Shown here in pieces: positions 2,581-24,398 of a stretch of 64,000 nucleotides of DNA; positions within the stretch are counted from its first letter, which is position 1; each line of letters begins with the position of its first letter. Position numbers and translations under genes: made by a program. This DNA comes from an uncultured virus (IMG/VR IMGVR_UViG_3300026250_000242). Taxonomy: Duplodnaviria > Heunggongvirae > Uroviricota > Caudoviricetes. The notes under the pieces were generated by a model. The model did not search any database and was not told the DNA's origin. It worked only from the letters and a program-made list of their open reading frames with translations. The stretch is from IMG/VR virus record IMGVR_UViG_3300026250_000242. One strand, given 5' to 3'.

Positions 2581-3000
2581 CTACGCGAACCCGAGCGCCT
2601 TGCGCTGCTCGTTCCAATCGTAAGAGAGGACCTTGATCAGTTTCATGTAGGAAAGCCCATCCGGTTCGCGGCCATCGAGAATGGCCTGCGTGATATCCGG
2701 CGCAATGGTGGCGAGACGCAGAACTCGAGCAACATAAGAGGGGTCCTTGCCCAGCGCGTCGGCGAGCTGCTTCGTCGAGCCATACCGGCCTTCGTCGAGA
2801 AGCCGGGTCCAGGCATGGGCGCGGGCCAGGATCGCGACAAGACGTTCCTGGCTCGCAGAATGGTCGCCGGTGCTCGATCCGTCGAGGCCTTCGGGAGCGA
2901 TGATCAGTTTTCGCCCGAAGCGTTTGCGCATCAGCATCGGCACGTGAATCAGCAGGCCCCCGTCGGCTGTGGAGCGGATCGTGACTTTGCCGTCGCTCAT
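2581..3000 (-). CDS. Recombinase-associated HTH protein
   Basis: LARAHAW..LLDEGRYGS...LA......SYVARVLRLATIAPDI..AILDG motif typical of the small gene following DUF2924-linked serine recombinases. Confidence 0.7.
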   Translation of the reverse strand: MSDGKVTIRSTADGGLLIHVPMLMRKRFGRKLIIAPEGLDGSSTGDHSASQERLVAILARAHAWTRLLDEGRYGSTKQLADALGKDPSYVARVLRLATIAPDITQAILDGREPDGLSYMKLIKVLSYDWNEQRKALGFA

Positions 3001-4571
3001 GATTGGCCTCCCCGTTGCCGCGCTTCGTCGGCATAGGCATTCAGATCGGCGACCAGTCCCGCGACACCCACGGCTTTCAGTTTCAGATCGAGTCCATCCG
3101 GCCAGACCGTGATCCGCTCGACCAGCGTCTGAACGATGCGTTGCTTCTCAGTTGGAAATAGCACCTCCCAGAATTCCTCAAGCGAACCGAAGGCCTCGGC
3201 GACGTCATGCTCGGTGATGTTGCTCTGGCCGAGTCCCGCCAGATCGCGCTCGATCCGGTCGAGGTCGTGGCCGACCGAGGATGCCTTTGCGTTCAGTTCC
3301 ATAATCCGGTCGGCGTCGCCGCCGTCACGCACGAGTTGGATCGCCTCGTCCTGAAGCGCTTTCAATTCCGACCTGAGCCGCGTCTGTTCATCGTTCAGGC
3401 GGCGGCGCTCCTCGTCTTCCTGATTCCGGGCGGACATGAACGTTTTGGCGACCAGCGTGGGTGTGCGGAAGACCGCGCCCAGTTGCTCGACGACGACCTT
3501 CTCGATTTCGCCCGCCGCGACACGGCTGACCGGGCACACGCCCGCGCCGCGTTTGGCAGCGGTCTGGCAGACGTAGTAATGATACTGGCGTCCGTGGCGT
3601 TTCGCGTAGGTCGGACTCATGGCGCTGTCGCAATGCCCGCAGCGGATGAGTCGGCGCAGCGGGGAGTTGGAGGTTTGGCGACCGGAAAACCGTCGCGTCC
3701 GGTTGTTGTCGGCCAGCAGTTCCTGCGTCCGATCCCAGAGCGCGCGGTCAAGGATGGCCTCATGCTCGCCGGGGTAAGTGTTGCCGTTGTGTTGCACTTC
3801 GCCGAGATAGAGACGGTTCTTATAGTGGCGATAGAGATGGCCGACGGACCACGGATGCCCGGCGCGATGATTGCCCTTCTTGGTGGTCCAGGACTTGGTG
3901 GTCAGCCCATCGGCGTTCAGTTCCCGTGCGACTTGCAGCGAAGAACCGGTCTGGACAAAGCGTCGGAAGATACGCCGGACGAGTTGCGCCTCACTCTCGT
4001 TGACGACCAGCCGCTTGTTGTCGTAATCCACATCGTAACCAAGCGGCGGCGGCCCTCCGCACCACTTGCCGCGACGCTTTGCGGCGGCGACCTTGTCTCG
4101 GATGCGTTCCCCCGCGATCTCGCGTTCGTATTGAGCGAAGGACATCAGGATGCCGAGCATCAGGCGACCCGACGAGTCGGTGGTGTTGAATTGCTCGGTG
4201 ACCGAGACGAAACTCACGTTTTGCTCTTCGAAGACCTCGACCATGCGGAAGAAATCGAGCAGCGACCGCGACAGCCGGTCGATCTTGTAGACGACAATGA
4301 TATCGACCTCACCGTCCGCGATGTCCTTGAGCAGCATCTTGAGCGCCGGGCGCTCCATCGTCCCGCCAGAGAATCCGCCATCGTCATATTGGCCGGGCGC
4401 CAGTTCCCATCCGCGCGAGGCCTGGCTTCTGATGAACGCCTCGCAGGCTTCGCGCTGGGCGTCGAGGGAGTTGAATTCCTGCTCCAGACCGTCCTCATGA
4501 CTCTTGCGCGTATAGACGGCGCAGCGGACGGTGGCGCGTTCGGTTTGTGGGCGGAGCAAGGTCTCAGGCAT
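2997..4571 (-). CDS. Large serine recombinase (integrase)
   Basis: RCAVYTRKS catalytic motif, YDDGGFSGG.MERPAL, VYKIDRLSRS, recombinase domain, Zn ribbon CGHC...YYVC. Confidence 0.95.
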   Translation of the reverse strand: MPETLLRPQTERATVRCAVYTRKSHEDGLEQEFNSLDAQREACEAFIRSQASRGWELAPGQYDDGGFSGGTMERPALKMLLKDIADGEVDIIVVYKIDRLSRSLLDFFRMVEVFEEQNVSFVSVTEQFNTTDSSGRLMLGILMSFAQYEREIAGERIRDKVAAAKRRGKWCGGPPPLGYDVDYDNKRLVVNESEAQLVRRIFRRFVQTGSSLQVARELNADGLTTKSWTTKKGNHRAGHPWSVGHLYRHYKNRLYLGEVQHNGNTYPGEHEAILDRALWDRTQELLADNNRTRRFSGRQTSNSPLRRLIRCGHCDSAMSPTYAKRHGRQYHYYVCQTAAKRGAGVCPVSRVAAGEIEKVVVEQLGAVFRTPTLVAKTFMSARNQEDEERRRLNDEQTRLRSELKALQDEAIQLVRDGGDADRIMELNAKASSVGHDLDRIERDLAGLGQSNITEHDVAEAFGSLEEFWEVLFPTEKQRIVQTLVERITVWPDGLDLKLKAVGVAGLVADLNAYADEARQRGGQS

Positions 4572-5511: not shown

Positions 5512-5892
5512 ATGCCAGGAAACGCTGAGTTCGGAAAACGGATACAGGAACTGCGCAAGAAGAAGATGGAGACCGATCCCTCTTACTCACTCCGCCAGTT
5601 CGCGGCCAAGGTGGGGATCAGCCCCACGTTTGTGAGCAAGATCGAGAATGGGGAGTTCGATCCGCCGAGCGCGGAGAACATCAAGAAGATGGCCGCCCTG
5701 CTGGACTGCAACACCGACGAGCTGCTGGCGCTGGCGGGCAAGGTCGATCCGGACATTTCGGAGATCATCAGAAAGAAGCCGAAGGCCCTGGCCGACTTTC
5801 TGCGCGTGGCCAACGGCCGGAGTGAAGAGGAAATTCGCAAGATGACGGCTCGCATGGTCGATCCAGACAAGGAGGACGAGGACAAGCAGTGA
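5512..5892 (+). CDS. XRE-family HTH repressor (ImmR/CI-like)
   Basis: FGKRIQELRK...SLRQFAAKVGISPTFVSKIENGE..PPS. Confidence 0.9.
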   Translation: MPGNAEFGKRIQELRKKKMETDPSYSLRQFAAKVGISPTFVSKIENGEFDPPSAENIKKMAALLDCNTDELLALAGKVDPDISEIIRKKPKALADFLRVANGRSEEEIRKMTARMVDPDKEDEDKQ

Positions 5893-6599
5893 GCCGTCTG
5901 TATCCAGTCAAGTTTATGCCCAAGCCCCATATCGAGCGAGCGGCCACCGCGCTGATTCATACCTACGCGCGTCAATATGGCCTGGCCGACGATGCGCCGG
6001 TGCCGGTGGACGCCATCCTTGAGTGTTCGCTGGGCCTGACGCTGGAGATCGGCGATCTGGCCGAACGGCTGGGACTAACCGATGTGCTCGGCGCGACGTG
6101 GATCGAGTCCCAGACCGTCATGATCGATGAGTCGCTGGAGCCGACGGACAACCCCTCGAAGGAAGGGCGCTTCAACTTCACGCTGGCCCACGAGATCGGC
6201 CACTGGGAACTGCACCGCCTTCAGATCTGTGATCCTCCGGATCAGCCATCGCTTTTCGATTTCCAGAGCGAGCCGTCCATCGTCTGCCGGTCCACCCAAT
6301 CCAGGGAGCCGATGGAATGGCAGGCGGACTGCTTCGCGGGGTATCTGCTGATGCCCGAGGACCGCGTGTTTCGCGTCTGGGAGCAGGTCTACGGCTCCGC
6401 CGGTCAGTACGTAGCCTTCGAGGAGATCGAGCAACTGAAGGCGCGCTGGGACGACGAACGCCCAACGGTCGAGGTGGCTCGGGAAATGGCCAAGCGGTTC
6501 AACGTCTCCGGCCAGGCAATGCAGATTCGGCTGGAGGACTTGAAACTCATTCTGCCGGAGAAGCCGGAGCCGGATCTGTTTTCGGGAGGCTGGGAATGA
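5889..6599 (+). CDS. ImmA/IrrE-family metallopeptidase (anti-repressor)
   Basis: RFNFTLAHEIGHW (HExxH), EWQADCFAGYLLMP, FNVSGQAM.IRL; translationally coupled to the XRE gene. Confidence 0.92.
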   Translation: MSRLYPVKFMPKPHIERAATALIHTYARQYGLADDAPVPVDAILECSLGLTLEIGDLAERLGLTDVLGATWIESQTVMIDESLEPTDNPSKEGRFNFTLAHEIGHWELHRLQICDPPDQPSLFDFQSEPSIVCRSTQSREPMEWQADCFAGYLLMPEDRVFRVWEQVYGSAGQYVAFEEIEQLKARWDDERPTVEVAREMAKRFNVSGQAMQIRLEDLKLILPEKPEPDLFSGGWE

Positions 6600-7948: not shown

Positions 7949-9092
7949 ACTGCTGGACAGACTCCTCGCCGACGGCACCCAGTCGAAACCTTCGGCGGAG
8001 CTTCGGGAAGCCGCCGACTTGCTTGCCGAACGCGGTCTCATCGAACTCGAGGATCGGCAGTATGTACGATGCGCCAATGCGGAGGACACCGAGGACTTCC
8101 GCTTCGTCAAGAATCGCAGTTGCCGGGGACGAATCTATATCGAGGACGGATTGGACCTCTATGGCGACGACTACAAGTGCCCGGATTGTGACAGGCGAAT
8201 CCTGCCCGGCAAAAAGAGGCACTATGAGGAATGGCGCGTGCGTCTTCTGCCGAACGGAGTCAAAGCCTTCGTCGAGTCCGCCCTGAAAGAGGCGGGCCTG
8301 ACCTGGAAGGAGAAAGCCCCGTGGGTCTTTCGCGTTGATGTGGGCGACGAGGAGGTCTGGCTGTGTATCGTCGACTTCTGCGAATCGTGCCAGCACATGA
8401 CGCGCGAGTGGGCTGTGGCGAACCATAACAAGGCGCTGTGGCTTGTTGTTCATCCCAGGGGCAAGACCGAGCGATTCCTTCAGGAGGATTGGCTGCCCGT
8501 TGTCTCGTTGTCCGAGCTGCTGACCGGCAGCGCCTCTCTCAATTCGCTCCTCCAAGCCAGGGCGGCCTGCAATCCGGCAACCAACCTCGGCAACCCATCG
8601 CTGCCCATCTATACAAAGGGCCGGAGGCATCCCGCGACCTTCGAAACGGAGATGCCTCCCAATCCAGACCGCTTGTTCACGGTGCAGGTCGGCGAACGGG
8701 AGGTCTTCGTCAACGGCTATCGGGTTGTCGCCAGACAATCCAGCACGGCCTTTGCCATCTTCAACATCCTATACAAGCGATTCCTGGCGAGATTCGCGGA
8801 CGATGCGAACGACGAGGACGCGACGGCGATTCCGGCGAAAGAACTCTGTTCACTGCTCTACGACGACACGGGCGGCGAGCCCGCTTCCGAGGAATCGCTG
8901 GGCAAGGCCATTGGACGCATCCGCAAAAACATCGAAAAGGCGATCAAGAAGAACACCGGCATGCCCATCGACGAATGCGACGTCATCGAAACGGTCCGCT
9001 GGAAAGGAATCGGCGAAGGGGAATACGGCTACCGTTTGAACCCGATTTCGGTCGCCATTCGACCTTTCGTTCCCGCGAAACCCGAGACATGA
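7899..9092 (+). CDS. Hypothetical protein with Cys cluster and probable C-terminal winged helix
   Basis: YVRC...SCRGRI...YKCPDC; C-terminal LGKAIGRIRKNIE...IETV...YGYRLNP resembles an OmpR-type wHTH. Confidence 0.65.
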   Translation: MASPSSRLKNASRSSPELLDRLLADGTQSKPSAELREAADLLAERGLIELEDRQYVRCANAEDTEDFRFVKNRSCRGRIYIEDGLDLYGDDYKCPDCDRRILPGKKRHYEEWRVRLLPNGVKAFVESALKEAGLTWKEKAPWVFRVDVGDEEVWLCIVDFCESCQHMTREWAVANHNKALWLVVHPRGKTERFLQEDWLPVVSLSELLTGSASLNSLLQARAACNPATNLGNPSLPIYTKGRRHPATFETEMPPNPDRLFTVQVGEREVFVNGYRVVARQSSTAFAIFNILYKRFLARFADDANDEDATAIPAKELCSLLYDDTGGEPASEESLGKAIGRIRKNIEKAIKKNTGMPIDECDVIETVRWKGIGEGEYGYRLNPISVAIRPFVPAKPET

Positions 9093-9128
9093 CCGGTCGG
9101 ATTTAGACCCGTCCGGTAGAATTTTGCG

Positions 9129-9178
9129 AGCCGGAGAGAAGCCCTGAGAAACATGGGATTCTCTCCGGCTTTTCTTTT
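9129..9178 (+). terminator. Intrinsic terminator
   Basis: AGCCGGAGAGAA/TTCTCTCCGGCT stem followed by TTTCTTTT. Confidence 0.7.
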
Positions 9179-9296
9179 GATACCCGTCGGGTCGGATTCA
9201 GACCTGACCTGCAGGTGGAGGCCTCTTTGGCCGCATTATTTCACCCGTAACGCGGCGAAATAGATGCCGCCGAACTCAACCATCTGGAGGTCAGAT

Positions 9297-9641
9297 ATGA
9301 CAGTTCAAGCCACACTGAAGCGCCCCACCAAAGGGGAACTGAGCGGGGAGCATCGCAGCCTGCTCGAACAGATGCAGGCCCTTAACTACGGCCGGATTCT
9401 CAAGATTCAGGTCCGCGACGGCGCCCCGCATTTCACGCCCATGACCCGGATCGAGCGACAAGTCCGCTTCGGCGGGGACAACCGTCCCCGGCCCGAATGC
9501 GGGCTGGATGATTTCGAACTCAAGGACAAGGTCGTCGAGCTTTTCGACGTCATCGAGCGGATGGGCGACGGGCTCATCCTGAAACTGGAAATCAAGGGCG
9601 GATTGCCCTTCGACATGACCGTCGAAGAGCGCCCCGCCTAA
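9297..9641 (+). CDS. Hypothetical phage protein upstream of the sigma factor
   Basis: SD GGAGG before ATG 9297; LLEQMQALNYGRI....VRDG.P...LEIKGGLPF. Confidence 0.7.
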   Translation: MTVQATLKRPTKGELSGEHRSLLEQMQALNYGRILKIQVRDGAPHFTPMTRIERQVRFGGDNRPRPECGLDDFELKDKVVELFDVIERMGDGLILKLEIKGGLPFDMTVEERPA

Positions 9642-9643
9642 CC

Positions 9644-9832
9644 CGGACAGACAAACCCAAGACATCAGACAACCAGCCGGACGCCAAGCGGAGGCCGTTG
9701 TGGATGTCGCCGAACCGAGAGATCGGTTGATCGCGGCGATTCCATTTCGGCCTCCGCTTTCTGTTTGTCCGTCCCTCCGCCGGTTCGCGTCGACATCCAC
9801 GCGCCTCCCTCCCGTCCGGGAAGGAGCGCGAA
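9644..9832 (+). promoter_or_regulatory. Structured RNA leader (putative attenuator/translational switch) of the sigma gene
   Basis: Nested hairpin 9686-9759 with GAGA tetraloop plus U-tract; alternative pairing of 9690-9717 with 9781-9808; anti-SD hairpin 9801-9829. Confidence 0.6.
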
Positions 9833-10381
9833 ATGGATTACCAGAACACGTACTACGAGTTGGGGGAATACGCCAACGACCTGATCCGCAGCAAGGCCCG
9901 CACGCTCATCGGCAAGGCGGGGTTCACCTCGGCGGACTGCGAGGACATCGAGCAGGAACTCGCGTTGGACCTGCTGGTGCGCCTCGAAAACTATGACCCG
10001 AAGAAAAGCAAGCGAAGCACGTTCATGACGCGCGTGGTCGAGCATCGCATCGCCACGCTGCTCGAAGAACGCCATGCCGCCTGCCGGGACTGGCGGCTGT
10101 GCCGCGAGTCGCTGGACGACCCGGAGTGGCAGGAACACGAAGACGGTTCACCCCGCCTCGACAGCCAACCCGATCCCTCGGCACCGACCGGCGATGACCT
10201 GGCGCTTGGAATGGACCTGCACAAGGCGCTGGAGAGCCTGCCCGCAGACCTGCGCGAACTGTGGGACCTGCTGCTCGATTCGAACATGTACCGCGTGGCG
10301 CGCGAGACGGGGATTGCCCGCGCAACGCTCTACTACCGGCTCGACCGGCTGCGGGCCGCCCTGCGCGAAGCCGGGCTGTGA
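9833..10381 (+). CDS. Phage-encoded ECF-like sigma-70 family factor
   Basis: Region 2-like DCEDIEQEL.LDLL.RLENYDP.KSKRSTF..RVV; region 4 HTH ALESLP.DLR...VARETGIARATLY.RL. Confidence 0.85.
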   Translation: MDYQNTYYELGEYANDLIRSKARTLIGKAGFTSADCEDIEQELALDLLVRLENYDPKKSKRSTFMTRVVEHRIATLLEERHAACRDWRLCRESLDDPEWQEHEDGSPRLDSQPDPSAPTGDDLALGMDLHKALESLPADLRELWDLLLDSNMYRVARETGIARATLYYRLDRLRAALREAGL

Positions 10382-10400
10382 GGAGAAAACGTCCGGGGCG

Positions 10401-10433
10401 CCGACAGTTTGCGGATTCTTCCGGTAAGTAACC
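10401..10433 (+). promoter_or_regulatory. Phage bipartite motif copy before the recombination/replication operon
   Basis: CCGACAGTTT-GCGGATTCTT-CCGGTAAGTAACC. Confidence 0.75.
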
Positions 10434-10507
10434 ACTGAGCGGCATCGGAATGAAGCCGCCCGCCGCCGGGGCCTCGGACGGAACCAAAACAACGAAAGGA
10501 ACGAATC

Positions 10508-10843
10508 ATGACAAAGCACATCTACCGCTACCGATTCGCTCGGACGGTTCCGGCCCGCGACATCGAAGAGACTTTGATGCTGGCGCTGATGGCCGTGGAA
10601 AGCCTGCACGGGCGCGCCCGGCTCCGCATGGACGGGCGTTACCGCTTCGACAAGGAACAACATACCTGCGAGATCGACGCCTCGACCAAGGTCGGAGCCG
10701 ATCTGGCCGAGATCTTCACCGGCTACGCGACGCGCGAATACGGCGACGACGCGGTGGCCATCAAACAGGAAGTTACGCCTGGCGAGAAGAGGGGCAAGTG
10801 CTCGTGCGCCGCCGCCTCCGCGCCTGCGGGGGTGGCCTCATGA
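10508..10843 (+). CDS. Hypothetical phage protein
   Basis: SD AAAGGA; stop overlaps next start (ATGA). Confidence 0.75.
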   Translation: MTKHIYRYRFARTVPARDIEETLMLALMAVESLHGRARLRMDGRYRFDKEQHTCEIDASTKVGADLAEIFTGYATREYGDDAVAIKQEVTPGEKRGKCSCAAASAPAGVAS

Positions 10844-11853
10844 GCGCGAAGATGACCACCACCTACAGCATGTGGTCGAAGTTCCGCAACTGCCGCAAGG
10901 CGTGCGAGTGGCGATACCTGAAGGAACTGGTCCCGCTCGAACGGGACCACAACCTTCACTTCGGGGCGGCTATTCACGAGTGCCTCGAACTCTGGCATCG
11001 CCACCGCGACCTCGACCGCGTCCTAGAGCACATCGACACCCTGTACCCCGAACGGATGGGCGACGAGAAGCAGCGCGCCGACTGGCATCTGGCCACGGCG
11101 ATGATGAAGGCCTACGCGGCGCGATACCCCGAGGAAGATTTCGAGGTCGTCGCGCTGGAGAAGACCTTCGAAAGCAACATCGTCAATCCGGCCACCGGCG
11201 CGTCGTCGCGCAGTTTCACGCTGGCGGGCAAGGTCGACGGGATCGTCAAGAAAGACGGGCAGTATTTCCTGCTCGAACACAAGACGGCCTCGCTTATCGA
11301 CTCCGGTTATCTCGAACGCCTCTGGGGCGATTTCCAGATTCAACTCTACTGCTGGTACATCGAGCAGACGCTCGGTTGGCGCATCAGCGGCCTCGTCTAC
11401 AACATCCTGGCCAAGGCGAAGCTGCGCCAGAAGCAGGGCGAAACCGAGGACGAATACCAGGCCCGGTGCGCGGAACTCATCGCCAAGTCGAAGTCCGGCA
11501 AGACGACGGCAAAACGGAAAATGCCGGAGACGGACGAGGAGTTTCAGGCGCGCCTGGCGGAGTGGTACGCGCAGCCCGACGCCTTTCATCGCGAGATGCT
11601 GTTCGTCAGCCGCGATCAGTTCGACACGCTGCGCGCCGAACTGTGGGAACTGACCCGCTCGTTTCTCGACGCGCGCCGCCGCAATATGTTCTATCAGAAC
11701 ACCTCCCAGTGCTTCACCTACGGGCGTCCCTGCCCGTACTTCCAGCTCTGCCGCTCGGGCGGCAGCCCCAACGTTATCGAGAACTTCTACCGGCACGAGG
11801 CGCCTCACACGGAACTTTCCGAGGACGCCGAGGCCGAGAAACCCATTTTCTGA
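10840..11853 (+). CDS. PD-(D/E)XK exonuclease (Cas4/AddB-like, Fe-S cysteines)
   Basis: FRNCRK...LAGKVDGIV...LLEHKT...Q..Y; C-terminal C...PCPYFQLC. Confidence 0.85.
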   Translation: MSAKMTTTYSMWSKFRNCRKACEWRYLKELVPLERDHNLHFGAAIHECLELWHRHRDLDRVLEHIDTLYPERMGDEKQRADWHLATAMMKAYAARYPEEDFEVVALEKTFESNIVNPATGASSRSFTLAGKVDGIVKKDGQYFLLEHKTASLIDSGYLERLWGDFQIQLYCWYIEQTLGWRISGLVYNILAKAKLRQKQGETEDEYQARCAELIAKSKSGKTTAKRKMPETDEEFQARLAEWYAQPDAFHREMLFVSRDQFDTLRAELWELTRSFLDARRRNMFYQNTSQCFTYGRPCPYFQLCRSGGSPNVIENFYRHEAPHTELSEDAEAEKPIF

Positions 11854-20288: not shown

Positions 20289-20393
20289 CTCATACCCATT
20301 TCGAGTGGCGGCAGACGGAGTCAGACGGCTTTGAGCCGGAACGAGACATAAGCCATGTCATAACAACACGACGCATCAATTGTCACCAATTTT

Positions 20394-20523
20394 ACCCACG
20401 CAATCCACGCAACCCACGCAATGGGTAGAACCTCCAAGGGATCGTGAAATGAAAATGGGTCATTTCATATTACGATTTGTAGAAAGATATGGGTATTGCG
20501 TGGGCTGCGTGGGTTACGTGGGT
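20394..20523. repeat. Inverted arrays of 3 x 9-bp repeats around an AT-rich core (putative replication origin)
   Basis: ACCCACGCA-ATCCACGCA-ACCCACGCA ... TGCGTGGGC-TGCGTGGGT-TACGTGGGT. Confidence 0.7.
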
Positions 20524-20533
20524 CGGAAGATTT

Positions 20534-20566
20534 CCGACAGTTTTCACCGCCGTCCGGTAAGTAACC
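20534..20566 (+). promoter_or_regulatory. Phage bipartite motif copy
   Basis: CCGACAGTTT-TCACCGCCGT-CCGGTAAGTAACC. Confidence 0.75.
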
Positions 20567-20610
20567 CTTGGAAACGAAAATTGAGAAACGCTTCCAAGGG
20601 ACACGACCAC

Positions 20611-21276
20611 ATGACGACACCGACGGCGACGCTCTATTTCGCATCGACCAGCCTCGATCTGCGCCAGACCGACAAGCCCGGCGACTATCCGCAGGACATC
20701 TACATCGACGACGTCTGTTACCGAAAAATCGATCCCCCCTATTTCGCCTGGCTCCGGTCGAGGATGGAGACGGCCAAGAGGTCGTTCGAGTCGGCCCGGT
20801 TGCCGAAGGCAAAGTGGGACGAACTCCGGGGGCGATTCAATCGACTGCAGGAGTGGGCTATCGAGCATTACGGCAAGGAAGTCTTGCAGGCAGCCATTCG
20901 CGAGTTCGATCCCGCCAACTACGCGCCACCAGTCAATCATCAGCCCGAGCCGTTCCTCTTCCCCAACACCGGCGACTGGCGTTTCACCGAGCCGGTCAAA
21001 CCGGCATCGGTCCGGAAGGTGGACGTCATCCGCGAAGCCGCCCAAGCCAAGGGATGGTCGGACGAACGCCTCTACCAGAATCGCGGACGGTTCTCGTTTC
21101 CCCTCGGCCAGGACTACGGCCTCGTCTGCTTCGTCGGTCCCGATGACGAACTCGGCGAGATCACCGAGACGCATATCGAAATCATCCATACCTGCGGCTC
21201 CCGCAAAAACTCCCTGCGCTTCGCCAACTCTGACGTGTTTCCGCCGCGCATCAGGAAGGCGGACGCCGCGTCATGA
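20611..21276 (+). CDS. Hypothetical phage protein
   Basis: ORF from ATG 20611 right after a motif copy; coding-like composition. Confidence 0.7.
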   Translation: MTTPTATLYFASTSLDLRQTDKPGDYPQDIYIDDVCYRKIDPPYFAWLRSRMETAKRSFESARLPKAKWDELRGRFNRLQEWAIEHYGKEVLQAAIREFDPANYAPPVNHQPEPFLFPNTGDWRFTEPVKPASVRKVDVIREAAQAKGWSDERLYQNRGRFSFPLGQDYGLVCFVGPDDELGEITETHIEIIHTCGSRKNSLRFANSDVFPPRIRKADAAS

Positions 21277-21542
21277 ACCCATCCTACCTCAACGGTCGCG
21301 AGGTCCTGCCGCCCGATGTGCTTGCCGAAGTCCAGAAGCACGCCAGCGGCCTGATCTGGATTCCATCGCCGAAGACCTTCTACCACGAACGCCGCCAACT
21401 CATCCTCACGCTTCGCGAGCAGGGCGTGCCGACCAGGGAGATCGCGCGGCTCGCGGGCATCTCCGTGCGGCGGGTCAATCAGGTCGTCGCCGGGAAAAAC
21501 GGCCACGAGAACCGACAGTTTCGGAAGGAATCCGGTAAGTAA
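21273..21542 (+). CDS. Small HTH protein
   Basis: Y.N..EVLP...L.EVQK...GLIWIP; C-terminal HTH GVPTREIARLAGISVRRVNQV. Confidence 0.75.
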   Translation: MNPSYLNGREVLPPDVLAEVQKHASGLIWIPSPKTFYHERRQLILTLREQGVPTREIARLAGISVRRVNQVVAGKNGHENRQFRKESGK

Positions 21543-21544
21543 CC
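21512..21544 (+). promoter_or_regulatory. Phage bipartite motif copy before the putative terminase small subunit
   Basis: CCGACAGTTT-CGGAAGGAAT-CCGGTAAGTAACC. Confidence 0.75.
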
Positions 21545-21658
21545 ACTGGAGCCCGGCGGATGAGCCGCTCGGGCCTGGAAGCGAAAATTAAGAGCGATTT
21601 CCCTCTCCCGCCCCGGAGTCCGGCTGTGGGGAGCGAATTCACACATGACGCGAGACCG

Positions 21659-22162
21659 ATGGCGAAGATGAACCGACGAGATACGGAAGAGTTGCAACGC
21701 TGGCAACGCAGCGAGGGGAAGGCCGAGCCTCCCCGCAATCGCGGCGGCCAGGCGGGCAATCTCAACCCTATGCGCCACGGGATTTTCGCCAACAAGTGCC
21801 TGGACGAGGAAGAGCGCGAGTTGTTTCGGGAGGTGATCGACAGCCTCTACCAGGACTTCACCTTCAACCGCTCCAGCGACTTCATCCAGATCGAGTTCAT
21901 CGGGATCAACACCGTGAAGTACATGCGGGCCGTGGCCGAGGGCAACATGGACGCGGCTCAGAAGCTGGACTCGATGATCCGGGCGAACATGAAGGACGTG
22001 AAGATGACGAAGATTGCCCGCGAGAGCGATCAACCGAAGGGACCGCAGTCCACGCCGGCGGATTGGGCGGCGGACCTGCTCAAGAAGTCGGGCGGCAAGC
22101 GGTCGGTCAAAGAGGGAGAAAAGAAGGCCGCTCCGAAAAAACGCAAGAAAGATGGCGGATAA
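21659..22162 (+). CDS. Putative terminase small subunit
   Basis: GGQAGNLNPMRHGIF resembles the GNxNAxKHG motif of TerS proteins; lies upstream of TerL. Confidence 0.55.
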   Translation: MAKMNRRDTEELQRWQRSEGKAEPPRNRGGQAGNLNPMRHGIFANKCLDEEERELFREVIDSLYQDFTFNRSSDFIQIEFIGINTVKYMRAVAEGNMDAAQKLDSMIRANMKDVKMTKIARESDQPKGPQSTPADWAADLLKKSGGKRSVKEGEKKAAPKKRKKDGG

Positions 22163-22401
22163 CACCGAACCGGCGATTCGCCGTACCCGCATGAACAGGG
22201 GCGATCCGGAGACGAGGCATGACCAAGACTTCGCATAAGACATGTTCCAGGAAGCGTTTCTTGAGATACGCTTCCAGGCTGGCGCGTTCTGTCATTGGCC
22301 GGATGTGTGTTTCTTCGGACTGTCTGAGGACTGTCTCTTCGGCTGTGCCAAGAGAGACGCGCCCCGCGAAGGAGCGCGTGATGAGGGTGAAGCCCGGCGT
22401 G

Positions 22402-23343
22402 TCAAAGACGTTCGAGGGCTTCCTCCAGACGGCCATCGACGAGGTGGGTGTAAATCTCGGTAGTCGAGATGTCGCGGTGGCCGAGGGCGCGTTGGACGAC
22501 CAGCAGGTCGCTCGTCGCCTCGTAAAGGTGGGTGGCGAAAGTGTGCCGCAGTCCGTGGGGCGAGAGCGGCTTGGCGATGCCCGCCTTGCGGAGCCAGTGC
22601 CCGAGCCGGTGGGCCACCTGCCGGTCCGAGATTCGGGCGGCCCGGTTCGAGAGGAAGAGTGCCTGGCAACCCATCGGAGCCTCGCGTCGGCGGTCGTTCA
22701 AGTAGCCGCGCAGCAGCGAGCGGAGGTCTGACTTGATGAACTTCACCTGCACGCAGCCCCCCTTGGCCCGAACGCGCAGATGCTTGGCGTCGAGGTCCAC
22801 GTCGTCCACGTCGAGGCCGACCAGTTCGCCGAGCCGGATGCCGGTGCCGAGCAGCACCTCGATCATCACCCGGTCGCGGCGGTCCCTCGCCGACGTGCGG
22901 CCCTTGAGTTCCTTGAGCAGAGCACGCTTCTCGGACAGCGTCAGGAAGACGGGCGGCTTTCTCGGCAGGCGCTTGAGGCGGATGCCTCGGGCGGGATTCT
23001 CGGCGGCCAAGCCGTTCTCGGCGGCCCAGGCGAAGAACATCTTCACGGCGGCCTTGAGCCGGTGGAGCGACGCCGGGGAGCGCTCGCCCGTTCGCGTGTT
23101 CAGAATGGCCGGTTCGGCCAGGGCCGCGTCCAACAGGCCGGGCGTCACGTCCGCCAAAACGACCGCCGGGCGCTGCGATTCGAGCGTCCGCGCCACGAGC
23201 AGCAGGTCCCTTCGGTATGCGCTGACCGTGTTCTTCGAGCGTCCGTTTGCCTGGAGGCTCCTGCAGAAGGCGTCCACGTGCTCCGCAAGTGGCGACCTGA
23301 CTTCGGCCAGCGGGATGATCGCCGCTTCATTCCTCGCTGTCAT
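22402..23343 (-). CDS. XerC/D-like tyrosine recombinase
   Basis: NTVSAYRRDL, TGIRLGEL, AKGG, SPHGLRHTFATHL, LGHRDISTTEIYTH (R-K-H-R-H-Y). Confidence 0.93.
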   Translation of the reverse strand: MTARNEAAIIPLAEVRSPLAEHVDAFCRSLQANGRSKNTVSAYRRDLLLVARTLESQRPAVVLADVTPGLLDAALAEPAILNTRTGERSPASLHRLKAAVKMFFAWAAENGLAAENPARGIRLKRLPRKPPVFLTLSEKRALLKELKGRTSARDRRDRVMIEVLLGTGIRLGELVGLDVDDVDLDAKHLRVRAKGGCVQVKFIKSDLRSLLRGYLNDRRREAPMGCQALFLSNRAARISDRQVAHRLGHWLRKAGIAKPLSPHGLRHTFATHLYEATSDLLVVQRALGHRDISTTEIYTHLVDGRLEEALERL

Positions 23344-23698
23344 TGGCTTGTTCCTTCTTCCTGCTGTAGCCCATGGGCGTGTCCTTGGGCAGCGGGAGGC
23401 TGGCGAGCCGCCCGGTTTCCTTGGCCCAGACGAGGAACATGCGGAAGACCCGGACCGTCTTGTCCACCGTCGGCTTGGCGCGTTCCTTCCCGCTCGGCAT
23501 CTTGAGCAGGTGGTCGGACTTGAAGAACTTGCCAACCTGCGGCGTGCGGATCGAGGCGAGCGGCTTGTCGCCGCCGAAGAAGCCCTCGATCAGGTCGAAG
23601 TCCTTGGCGTAGGTGTAGAGCGTCCGCTCCTTCTTCCCCTGCTGGCGCAGGTGTTCGAGGAAGGCCTGCGCGGCGTTGTGAATCGTCGGATTCGTCAT
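23327..23698 (-). CDS. Stand-alone integrase core-binding (SAM-like) domain protein
   Basis: FLEHLRQQGKKERTLYTYAKDF...TVDKTVRVFRMFLVWA; no catalytic domain; SD AAAGGAGA. Confidence 0.7.
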   Translation of the reverse strand: MTNPTIHNAAQAFLEHLRQQGKKERTLYTYAKDFDLIEGFFGGDKPLASIRTPQVGKFFKSDHLLKMPSGKERAKPTVDKTVRVFRMFLVWAKETGRLASLPLPKDTPMGYSRKKEQANDSEE

Positions 23699-23844
23699 CG
23701 TTCTGTATCTCCTTTTGGCTTTTGTTTTGGCGGGCCTTCGCGCCCGCGACATGGACATACACGCTTGGAACGGCGAGTGAAATCAAGTCGTTCAGGCGGA
23801 AACCTGGAAGTAATTTGAGAACCCCAGCAACGGAGGAAATACCC

Positions 23845-24123
23845 ATGAGAAAGACCATCGAGTGGCTGATCGCGCTGACCTTGGCCGGAACGCTGGCGGG
23901 GTGCGCCACGACGCAGCCCCCAGTGCGCATTCAGGAAGCCATCGGCACGATGAACGCCCACATGCCCGAGTACGTGGCCGAGGCCAACGCAGCCCTGGAG
24001 TCGGGCGAACATCCCGACGCGGAACGCCTGACGGGCGTCGGCGTCCGGCTTCAGGAAGGCATGGAAGCCCTGGACCGCTGGGCCGAGGGCGAGAACATCC
24101 AGCAGGAAGGCGGCGAACAATGA
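23845..24123 (+). CDS. Small lipoprotein
   Basis: MRKTIEWLIALTLAGTLAGC signal peptide with lipobox; SD GGAGG. Confidence 0.75.
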   Translation: MRKTIEWLIALTLAGTLAGCATTQPPVRIQEAIGTMNAHMPEYVAEANAALESGEHPDAERLTGVGVRLQEGMEALDRWAEGENIQQEGGEQ

Positions 24124-24398
24124 AGGAGATTCTGCGTGAAAACAAGGAGGCCGTCCGCGACGCCGGGCTGGCGCTGATCGATATCGGCTCGCAACTGGCC
24201 GCCGGGAAGATCGACGAGGCCCTTGGGCGGCTTGAGGCGTCCCGGCAGAAATACCGCGAGTGGGACGAACTCGACGGAGCCGTGGCCAAGATCGAGTCGG
24301 TCATCCGCGAGCGCGAGTCGATGCTGGCGGTTCAGCAGGTCGTCGGCGAGATGGTCGGCGTCATCCTGGGCGCGGCGTTGCGAAGCAGGATGGGCTGA
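24120..24398 (+). CDS. Hypothetical protein
   Basis: Coupled by ATGA/TGATG overlaps to both neighbours. Confidence 0.7.
   Translation: MKEILRENKEAVRDAGLALIDIGSQLAAGKIDEALGRLEASRQKYREWDELDGAVAKIESVIRERESMLAVQQVVGEMVGVILGAALRSRMG

Follow-up and report, generated by a model that had tools for sequence, protein, structure and literature searches.

The stretch of DNA considered here, 64,000 nucleotides of the uncultured virus IMGVR_UViG_3300026250_000242 (Caudoviricetes) and referred to throughout as the window, carries a structured leader RNA in the 191-nt spacer between an upstream open reading frame (ORF), ORF114, and a sigma-factor gene. This leader is a widespread and strongly covarying element of at least three states that is situated ahead of a phage sigma gene, and its structure is well supported. 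A translational-lock function is the most economical inference, and the leader is accordingly read here, with modest confidence, as a conserved cis-acting, multi-state lock on the translation of sigma. An initial annotation of the region had described a two-state switch in the leader of a phage sigma gene. Both of its folds are real, but a third partner for the same strand, hairpin C, brings the number of states to at least three. The downstream gene (9833..10381) was correctly named, and encodes an extracytoplasmic function (ECF)-like phage sigma of 182 amino acids that matches PF04542 of the sigma-70 family (E 1.6e-5) and phrog_1740, “RNA polymerase sigma factor” (E 4.4e-15). A phage sigma would redirect the host polymerase to late genes, and the timing of its production, which the leader probably gates, would probably commit a temperate phage to lysis. 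All features described below lie on the plus strand unless stated otherwise.

The leader runs in the order S0 (C/A-rich), S1 (G-rich), S2 and S3 (both C/A-rich) and S4, the latter being the ribosome-binding site (RBS) of sigma with its Shine-Dalgarno (SD) sequence and AUG. The central strand is S1 (9687..9712), which is common to three alternative structures: it pairs with S0 in hairpin C, with S2 in hairpin A and with S3 in fold B. The C-rich S3 (9781..9813) is complementary to the translation initiation region (TIR) of sigma and thus constitutes an anti-TIR, which pairs either with S1 or, in hairpin D, with S4. The dual complementarity of S3 is mirrored in S1 itself, where GGAG-N6-GUGGAU copies the GGAG-N6-AUGGAU of the sigma RBS, spacing included, such that S1 has the character of a decoy.

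The leader folds far better than its composition predicts. By RNAfold, positions 9642-9840 (199 nt) reach -92.6 kcal/mol, as compared with -68.5 +/- 4.8 kcal/mol for 200 dinucleotide shuffles, none of which was equally good (z = -5.04), and the minimum free energy (MFE) structure consists of hairpin A together with a hairpin that buries the sigma SD and AUG. Perfect stems reach 12 bp in length, against shuffle maxima with a mean of 7.2 and a largest value of 11 (n=300), and perfect stems of at least 7 bp occur at 18 positions in the leader versus 1.9 +/- 1.7 in shuffles. A repeat finder independently recovered 9686-9704/9741-9759 (hairpin A), the pair 9645-9656/9763-9774 and the helices of fold B (9700-9712/9788-9800, 9711-9717/9781-9787 and 9690-9695/9803-9808). 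Every helix listed in the initial annotation is present where it had been placed.

The spread of the element was assessed among 162 sigma loci, two taken from genomes, the best 80 of 213 from metagenomes and the best 80 of 141 from IMG/VR; the metagenome and viral loci came from alignment-based scans, a viral scan with the single sigma protein having given no locus. A 14-nt core, GTYGTGGNTGTCGC, occurs in 115 of these 162 loci, invariably on the sigma strand and 100-260 nt before the start. A covariance model built on 19 close relatives gave full-length plus-strand matches in 95 of the 98 sources with sigma homologues that were searched, corresponding to 72 distinct sequences; the matches were always on the plus strand just upstream of the sigma gene, and the 64-kb window holds one single plus-strand copy. 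Homologues of the sigma protein, which fall into 42 clusters of homologous proteins, are common in metagenomes and viral contigs, and the leader is kept where sigma is only 35-41% identical to that of the window. Leader-bearing records include metagenomes, IMG/VR viral contigs, and metagenome-assembled genomes labelled Sumerlaeia and Methylococcus. The INPHARED phage records yielded neither a DNA nor a protein match, and a search of E. coli genomes with the locus of a relative came up empty.

No named RNA family corresponds to the leader, as had been surmised. A cmscan of window positions 9000-10500 against Rfam 15 at E up to 10 produced no plus-strand match in 9642-9838, the lone overlap with the leader being HOTTIP_1 on the minus strand at a chance-level E of 8.5, and six further leader members searched at E up to 1 returned just a weak tRNA match elsewhere. 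Full-text literature searches turned up no description of this leader. Two unnamed elements in a catalogue of viral structured RNAs, DNAVirus_1961 (103 nt) and DNAVirus_4829 (39 nt), are listed there as preceding phage sigma-70/ECF genes by no more than 25 bp (PMC10690425). Compared by their descriptions, both are much shorter than the present leader of ~180 nt and are reported to have only one or two covarying bases.

Hairpin A (9686..9759), the fold A of the initial annotation and part of the MFE structure, is a long nested hairpin with outer arms AAGCGGAGGCCG (9686-9697) and CGGCCTCCGCTT (9748-9759). It comprises helices P1 (9687-9697/9748-9758), P2a (9700-9704/9741-9745), P2b (9706-9712/9734-9740) and P3 (9713-9718/9723-9728), the inner parts being TCGCCG (9707-9712) with CGGCGA (9734-9739) and AACCGA-GAGA-TCGGTT (9713-9728), which ends in a GAGA loop. 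In a structure-blind MAFFT alignment of 19 sequences the hairpin is 96.3% paired. In the alignment of all 72 distinct sequences (A5), which was fitted to fold A, this fold and the SD hairpin together are 94.6% paired, with double changes at 16 of 27 pairs (119 cells), and none of 500 shuffles reached this pairing; pairing in the three helices of hairpin A is 95.8, 98.8 and 85.7%, and 11 of their 22 pairs show double changes.

Directly after hairpin A, a U-rich tail (TTTCTGTTTGT) begins at 9758, the whole tract UUUCUGUUUGU spanning 9758..9768. It is terminator-like in the window's clade only, where the window itself presents a 12-bp GC-rich stem base followed by six U in the best 8-nt window. 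The initial annotation had treated termination as the output of the switch, and this part does not hold for the family: of the 72 distinct leaders, 29 have at least five U in 8 nt and 8 have six or more, and the largest clade has none. Nevertheless, hairpins C, A and D and fold B are all retained in the leaders without a U-tract, the largest clade included, so that a terminator role of hairpin A is clade-specific at best. As a separate observation, S2 in the window (9741-9755) is complementary to the SD-AUG region (9823-9837) at 13 of 15 positions, and the 3' arm of hairpin A is thus a possible second RBS sequestrator in the window's clade; across the family, S2:S4 pairing amounts to 55%, equal to slid controls, and is not conserved.

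Fold B joins the same 5' segment to S3 through a main helix, GTGGATGTCG (9700-9709) with CGACATCCAC (9791-9800), a second helix of CGAACCG (9711-9717) with CGGTTCG (9781-9787), and a third of GGAGGC (9690-9695) with GCCTCC (9803-9808). In the MAFFT-only alignment of 19 sequences the main helix is 99.5% paired and the other two 93.9 and 89.5%, and pairing falls to 28-55% when the 3' partner is slid by 1-3 columns. Across the 72 sequences the main helix is 98.4% paired, with 4 of 10 pairs doubly changed, in columns that had been modelled as unpaired. Compensatory examples include U-A to C-G via U·G and, within the clade of the window, A-U to G-C. Taken over all 16 pairs of fold B, the observed percentage paired was reached by 0 of 500 shuffles, and slid controls gave 35-58%; its GGAG/CUCC helix is 81.3% paired. 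Thus A and B, proposed as mutually exclusive partners of one 5' segment, are both kept with compensatory changes in homologous leaders, and the covariation of alternative helices, whose absence would by the initial annotation have spoken against the switch, is found.

Hairpin D (9795..9838), whose pairs belong to the MFE structure, sequesters both the SD GGAAGGAG (9819-9826) and the AUG at 9833, AUCCA (9795-9799) pairing with UGGAU (9834-9838). That the SD is buried in a hairpin, as first claimed, applies to essentially all members: the five modelled pairs of the SD hairpin (9801-9829) are 97.3% paired over the 72 sequences, and all five show double changes. Pairing of S3 with the start-codon region, present in many clades, amounts to 72.7% versus 10-41% when slid. 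Among the structures found, fold B is the sole state that removes the anti-TIR from the sigma RBS. Three loci (L047, L065 and L067; e.g. L067:1380-1475) have ~100 nt inserted between the anti-core CGACACCCAC and the SD hairpin, with the remainder of the leader intact and the SD hairpin retained right before the sigma start.

The third partner of S1 lies upstream. Hairpin C (9661..9708) shares 9687-9708 with hairpin A and is built of GACAUC (9661-9666) with GAUGUC (9703-9708), ACAAC (9669-9673) with GUUGU (9697-9701), and the further helices 9675-9678/9693-9696 and 9681-9684/9688-9691. It accounts for a conserved and seemingly unpaired upstream motif, GACAYNRGACAAC...CYGGMCGC, which is in fact its 5' strand. 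RNAfold returns hairpin C for the 37-nt segment alone in 71 of 72 distinct sequences. Pairing stands at 91.7% for the inner 13 pairs, seven of them doubly changed (66 cells; 0 of 500 shuffles), and at 94.1% for the outer six, four of them doubly changed; ACAAC/GUUGU alone has compensatory changes at three of five pairs in 5 of the 72 sequences (L029, L131, L134, L136 and L157). The 5' strand of hairpin C is also the sequence AGACATCAGACAAC, which was considered as a repeated promoter motif and rejected, as it has one occurrence in 64 kb at up to three mismatches and is not above chance. An invariant GG (9679-9680) in the internal loop of hairpin C falls outside all pairings found and may represent a protein contact or a tertiary interaction.

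The core columns 65-74 pair with three distinct sets of columns, with compensatory changes in each; column 69 (9704 in the window), for instance, covaries as GC, AU or GU with columns 27 (S0), 150 (S2) and 230 (S3). S1 is nearly invariant, in keeping with constraint by several pairing partners. Most of the conserved nucleotides are explained by the multiple pairings, and no conserved unpaired pocket was identified in the leader. A 98-codon ORF (9700-9996) has the decoy GUG as its start, 5 nt downstream of a perfect GGAGG, and runs across the start of sigma in a different frame; since relatives keep neither its length nor its frame, it is probably no gene. A leader peptide from the decoy GUG was rejected, the stops being scattered over all three frames and over positions -121 to +594 counted from the start of sigma, as was one from the decoy UUG, for which there is no conserved stop or frame. 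The GUG and the UUG are each changed in 2 of 72 sequences, and in these the pairing partners compensate.

Folding strength does not reveal the acting strand, since the reverse strand of the leader folds still better (z -7.4), and the strand therefore had to be decided by other evidence. Cells with G·U outnumber those with A·C by 211 to 17 in fold A, 63 to 6 in fold B and 106 to 34 in hairpin C, and while the G/U-rich S1 is nearly invariant, its C/A-rich partners drift via wobble-compatible transitions. DNA sites or a minus-strand RNA would be expected to show G·U and A·C about equally, which is not so here; the excess of G·U and the wobble-type drift point to plus-strand RNA as the probable functional molecule.

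Energies computed for the window suggest an order of events. In prefix folding, hairpin C is the MFE structure for transcripts ending from 9702 to ~9750, and hairpin A from 9756 onwards, when its 3' arm is complete. Over 9642-9850, A with D came to -93.6 kcal/mol, forced C (with D) to -80.1 kcal/mol and forced B to -73.8 kcal/mol. The barrier from C to A was estimated by findpath, a heuristic direct-path upper bound, at 11-15 kcal/mol; such a barrier would mean seconds or longer, and hairpin C could be a kinetic trap.

On these grounds the proposed lock may be envisaged as follows. The C-rich S3 holds the sigma RBS, SD and AUG alike, in hairpin D, and the decoy S1 can pair with S0, with S2 in the most stable of its hairpins, or with S3. 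Folding would follow synthesis: hairpin C would form first and sequester S1 once made, hairpin A would displace it over a sizeable barrier, and hairpin D would then close the RBS, with the resting state of A and D being OFF. Sigma would be translated only once S1 passes to S3. This hand-over could occur transiently during synthesis, in the manner of the MS2 maturation leader, or it could depend on a factor that blocks both S0 and S2, for which the protein of ORF114 would be the candidate, being gained and lost together with the leader. Either way, the permissive state needs a kinetic window or a factor. With the SD and start codon in a conserved helix and a conserved capture of the anti-TIR, the leader fits, by its sequence conservation, an SD-sequestering riboregulator.

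Several observations weigh against this reading and temper the confidence placed in it. No state with a free RBS is energetically favoured and no trigger was identified; fold B lies ~20 kcal/mol above the MFE in the window, and 0-23 kcal/mol above it in the representatives compared. The complementarity of S2 to the RBS in the window is such that fold B might not free the RBS there. In L047, L065 and L067, S3 and the SD hairpin are ~100 nt apart, and the two therefore need not act as one unit. On the statistical side, shared ancestry of the sequences inflates the covariation counts, the A5 alignment had been fitted to fold A, and several of the covarying changes, such as the core A/G switch, may be single events. 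The evidence for transcription is weak. Metatranscriptome assemblies from sludge and bioreactor samples contain the stretch at 100% identity and low depth, and one contig covers 9241-9853, i.e. ORF114, the leader and the sigma start, making read-through RNA from ORF114 into sigma plausible; in another RNA run of the same study (X17), contigs break at 9757-9764, the place of the stop being inconsistent across studies. Assembled contigs are of no use for locating the ends of RNAs or gauging their levels, and these may stem from carried-over DNA.

The alternative that survives best is a transcription attenuator, which is a possibility to be taken seriously, if distinctly a less probable one, and which could coexist with the translational lock in the window's clade. 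Hairpin A and the U-tract would here form an intrinsic terminator within the early operon, such that read-through into sigma and the replication genes is regulated, with B and D as a secondary layer. The GC-rich 12-bp stem base and the six U in 8 nt of the window suit this proposal, as do the X17 contig breaks, which fall at the end of hairpin A. So does hairpin C, which lies upstream, is the MFE structure until 9750, is separated from A by the barrier given above and, as expected of an attenuator, uses the 5' arm of hairpin A with its other strand transcribed earlier. Indeed, fold B is excluded from this role by geometry, so that any antiterminator would be hairpin C, and if hairpin A terminates in the window's clade it is C and not B that would act in this capacity. 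On the other hand, 43 of the 72 distinct leaders, the largest clade included, lack the U-tract yet keep C, A, B and D; a consensus terminator scan did not call the site, having passed over it because the loop exceeds 8 nt; the RNA contig covering 9241-9853 bridges it; and neither the leader peptides, the stop-proximal pairing nor the look for unpaired pockets revealed a sensor able to select between C and A. In the window's clade, hairpin A and its U-tract may nonetheless terminate part of the transcripts as well.

A more elaborate version of the lock, considered rather doubtful, assigns the trigger to the gene upstream. Under this “combination lock” for temperate-phage commitment, the ORF114 protein, itself translated from this transcript, would bind the C/A-rich anti-segments or hairpin C, hand the decoy to the anti-TIR, and so open sigma only once early proteins have accumulated; if true, it would entail a new family of RNA-binding proteins and a new class of multi-state RNA in phages of several bacterial phyla. 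ORF114 (9297..9641; alternative ATG at 9264) encodes 114 amino acids from the ATG at 9297. It has no Pfam, PHROG or Atlas lead, and its AF2 model (pLDDT 91.8) shows two helix-plus-beta-hairpin units, for which neither Foldseek (best E 0.5) nor VIA (best Z 3.3) gave a convincing match among solved PDB folds. A hidden Markov model (HMM) of the family detects it in 128 of 135 leader-bearing loci and in none of 27 leader-less ones. Seven loci were missed: in L055, L070, L078, L108 and L151 the fetched contig begins no more than ~150 nt before the leader, in L050 all that is left is an 18-aa ORF similar to the C-terminal end of ORF114, and L125 is an outlier by its divergence. ORF114 is strictly syntenic with the leader: in nearly all loci the homologue ends 0-45 nt ahead of it, its stop codon lying ~19-45 nt from the first conserved helix.

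On a FastTree phylogeny of 148 sigma proteins the leader changes state seven times and ORF114 eight times; in five independent contrasts ORF114 moves in the same direction as the leader in about four and in the opposite direction in none (sign test p 0.125). As the two are adjacent, however, joint loss by one deletion explains their co-occurrence equally well, and the functional tie of ORF114 to the leader is a lead, not proof. Prediction of an ORF114-sigma complex scored 0.00 in two runs that had no controls and is evidence neither way. One locus (L049:1150-1520) carries a sigma homologue of 46% identity with neither ORF114 nor the leader; the gene upstream of this sigma closes with a canonical GC-stem/T-run terminator, after which comes a ~280-nt spacer. 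By this arrangement, the ORF114-leader cassette looks exchangeable.

A regulator acting in trans is improbable. The 5' half of the leader, S0-S1-S2, might be released from the 3' end of the ORF114 transcript as a small RNA and act on S3 of sigma mRNAs by anti-antisense activation, like DsrA on rpoS. In its favour, hairpin A with its U-tail resembles the 3' end of a small RNA in the window's clade, and S1 is complementary to S3 over 23 bp. S1 would, however, sit locked in the very stable hairpin A, most clades have no U-tract, a scan for sigma-70-like promoter sites found none in 8500-11000, and the element is always directly upstream of sigma.

The mechanism put forward in the initial annotation itself, in which hairpin A is the terminator, fold B the antiterminator that also frees the SD, and ribosomes on 9297-9641 decide between them, is now very improbable. 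Its elements were well observed, A and B being conserved and mutually exclusive. Its logic is largely refuted on geometry: the 3' strand of fold B (9781-9808) is made once the polymerase is past the U-tract (9758-9768), and B therefore cannot block termination by A; the U-tract, moreover, is not conserved. The coupling to translation had rested on a match between GGACAGACAAAC (9645-9656), just after the ORF114 stop, and GTTTGTCCGTCC (9763-9774). The match exists, at 11 of 12 positions, but the energy of the duplex is at chance when compared with shuffled partners (z +0.5 in the window; family median z 0.17; 8 of 72 below -2) and the pairing is not conserved. Strong pairing in this stop-proximal region (P0) is confined to one clade, where other sequences are the partners. 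The stop also lies at a varying distance from the first conserved helix, as given above, which counts against such a coupling.

Similarly, there is little likelihood that the leader is a static element, with hairpin A serving as a terminator or stability hairpin of the upstream gene, the SD hairpin as a fixed damper, and the remaining complementarities as by-products of repeated SD-like and anti-SD-like sequence. The MFE structure is indeed A with D and is far more stable than the alternatives, but compensatory changes maintain B and C, also in columns not fitted to them, and the near-invariance of S1 suits a strand with several partners. Least credible of all is that GACATC(CAC) at 9661 and 9792 and its inverted copy GTGGATGTC at 9700 are operator half-sites co-evolving with a phage protein: a direct repeat and an inverted copy do lie within 140 bp, and all copies change together in the window's clade, but the plus-strand excess of G·U over A·C and the asymmetric drift of the C/A-rich strands argue for RNA, and the spacing varies from 61 to 122 nt.

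Returning to the translational lock, the functioning system nearest to it is the leader of the MS2/Levivirus maturation-protein gene, in which a metastable hairpin delays the SD-closing structure and provides a short window for translation, as described in PMC4615214. The two leaders have in common an SD that is shut at equilibrium by an upstream complement, a mutually exclusive metastable hairpin (a predicted one in the present leader) that comes first in synthesis, and conservation of both structures (PMC4615214). Unlike the MS2 leader, the present one belongs to a DNA genome, is intercistronic and is known from sequence alone. Its shared strand is an RBS mimic with three partners, and the first-formed hairpin C sequesters the decoy rather than the inhibitor; a permissive time window is therefore not evident from the geometry.

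Other precedents illuminate individual features. In the hok mRNA of plasmid R1, a nucleotide may covary with at least two partners, and programmed structures keep the RBS closed until a trigger, 3' processing, activates the message, which is also controlled by an antisense RNA. The present leader likewise displays coupled covariation, with shared nucleotides engaging several alternative partners; we know of no processing site or antisense RNA for it, unlike hok. The classical attenuators, trp (also summarised in PMC4615214), pyrBI and erm, consist of serial overlapping hairpins in which an upstream hairpin can pre-empt a terminator-like one. Hairpins overlap in series here also, but unlike these classical systems the leader has no conserved leader peptide or U-tract, and its output appears to be translational. 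In the rpoS leader (with DsrA and RprA) and in lambda cIII, whose mRNA adopts two conformations, the RBS is closed by an upstream antisense sequence and opened by a capturing RNA strand; in contrast, the present leader contains its own capturing strand, S1, which two additional partners lock in turn. Finally, in the com-mom operon of Mu, a small protein encoded directly upstream opens a hairpin hiding the start of the next gene. The model proposed for ORF114 is alike in that its product could open a start-hiding hairpin, although no similarity was detected between ORF114 and Com, or between ORF114 and any solved fold.

The leader offers a testable RNA-level gate on sigma, conserved down to ~35-40% sigma protein identity, and a rare natural case of one strand with three covarying partners in which the regulated RBS is copied as a decoy. 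It would thus be a good model for programmed folding pathways, and it links an RNA element with ORF114, a small protein of novel structure.

The region around sigma looks like a temperate-phage early operon. A serine integrase (2997-4571, minus strand) is followed by an XRE-type regulator and an ImmA-like protease (5512-6599), two PHROG families of unknown function, and then ORF114, the leader and sigma. Downstream of sigma are recombination and replication genes, methyltransferases, terminase, and head and tail genes. Immediately 3' of sigma, a spacer of ~70 nt precedes short overlapping ORFs (10450-11853 and 10508-10843) without family matches. Between the phage primase and terminase lies a block of mostly minus-strand ORFs (20380-24304) that contains, in addition to the serine integrase noted above, a tyrosine integrase (22402-23535; phrog_1). 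A nested mobile element is one possible explanation of this block, a second integration module another.

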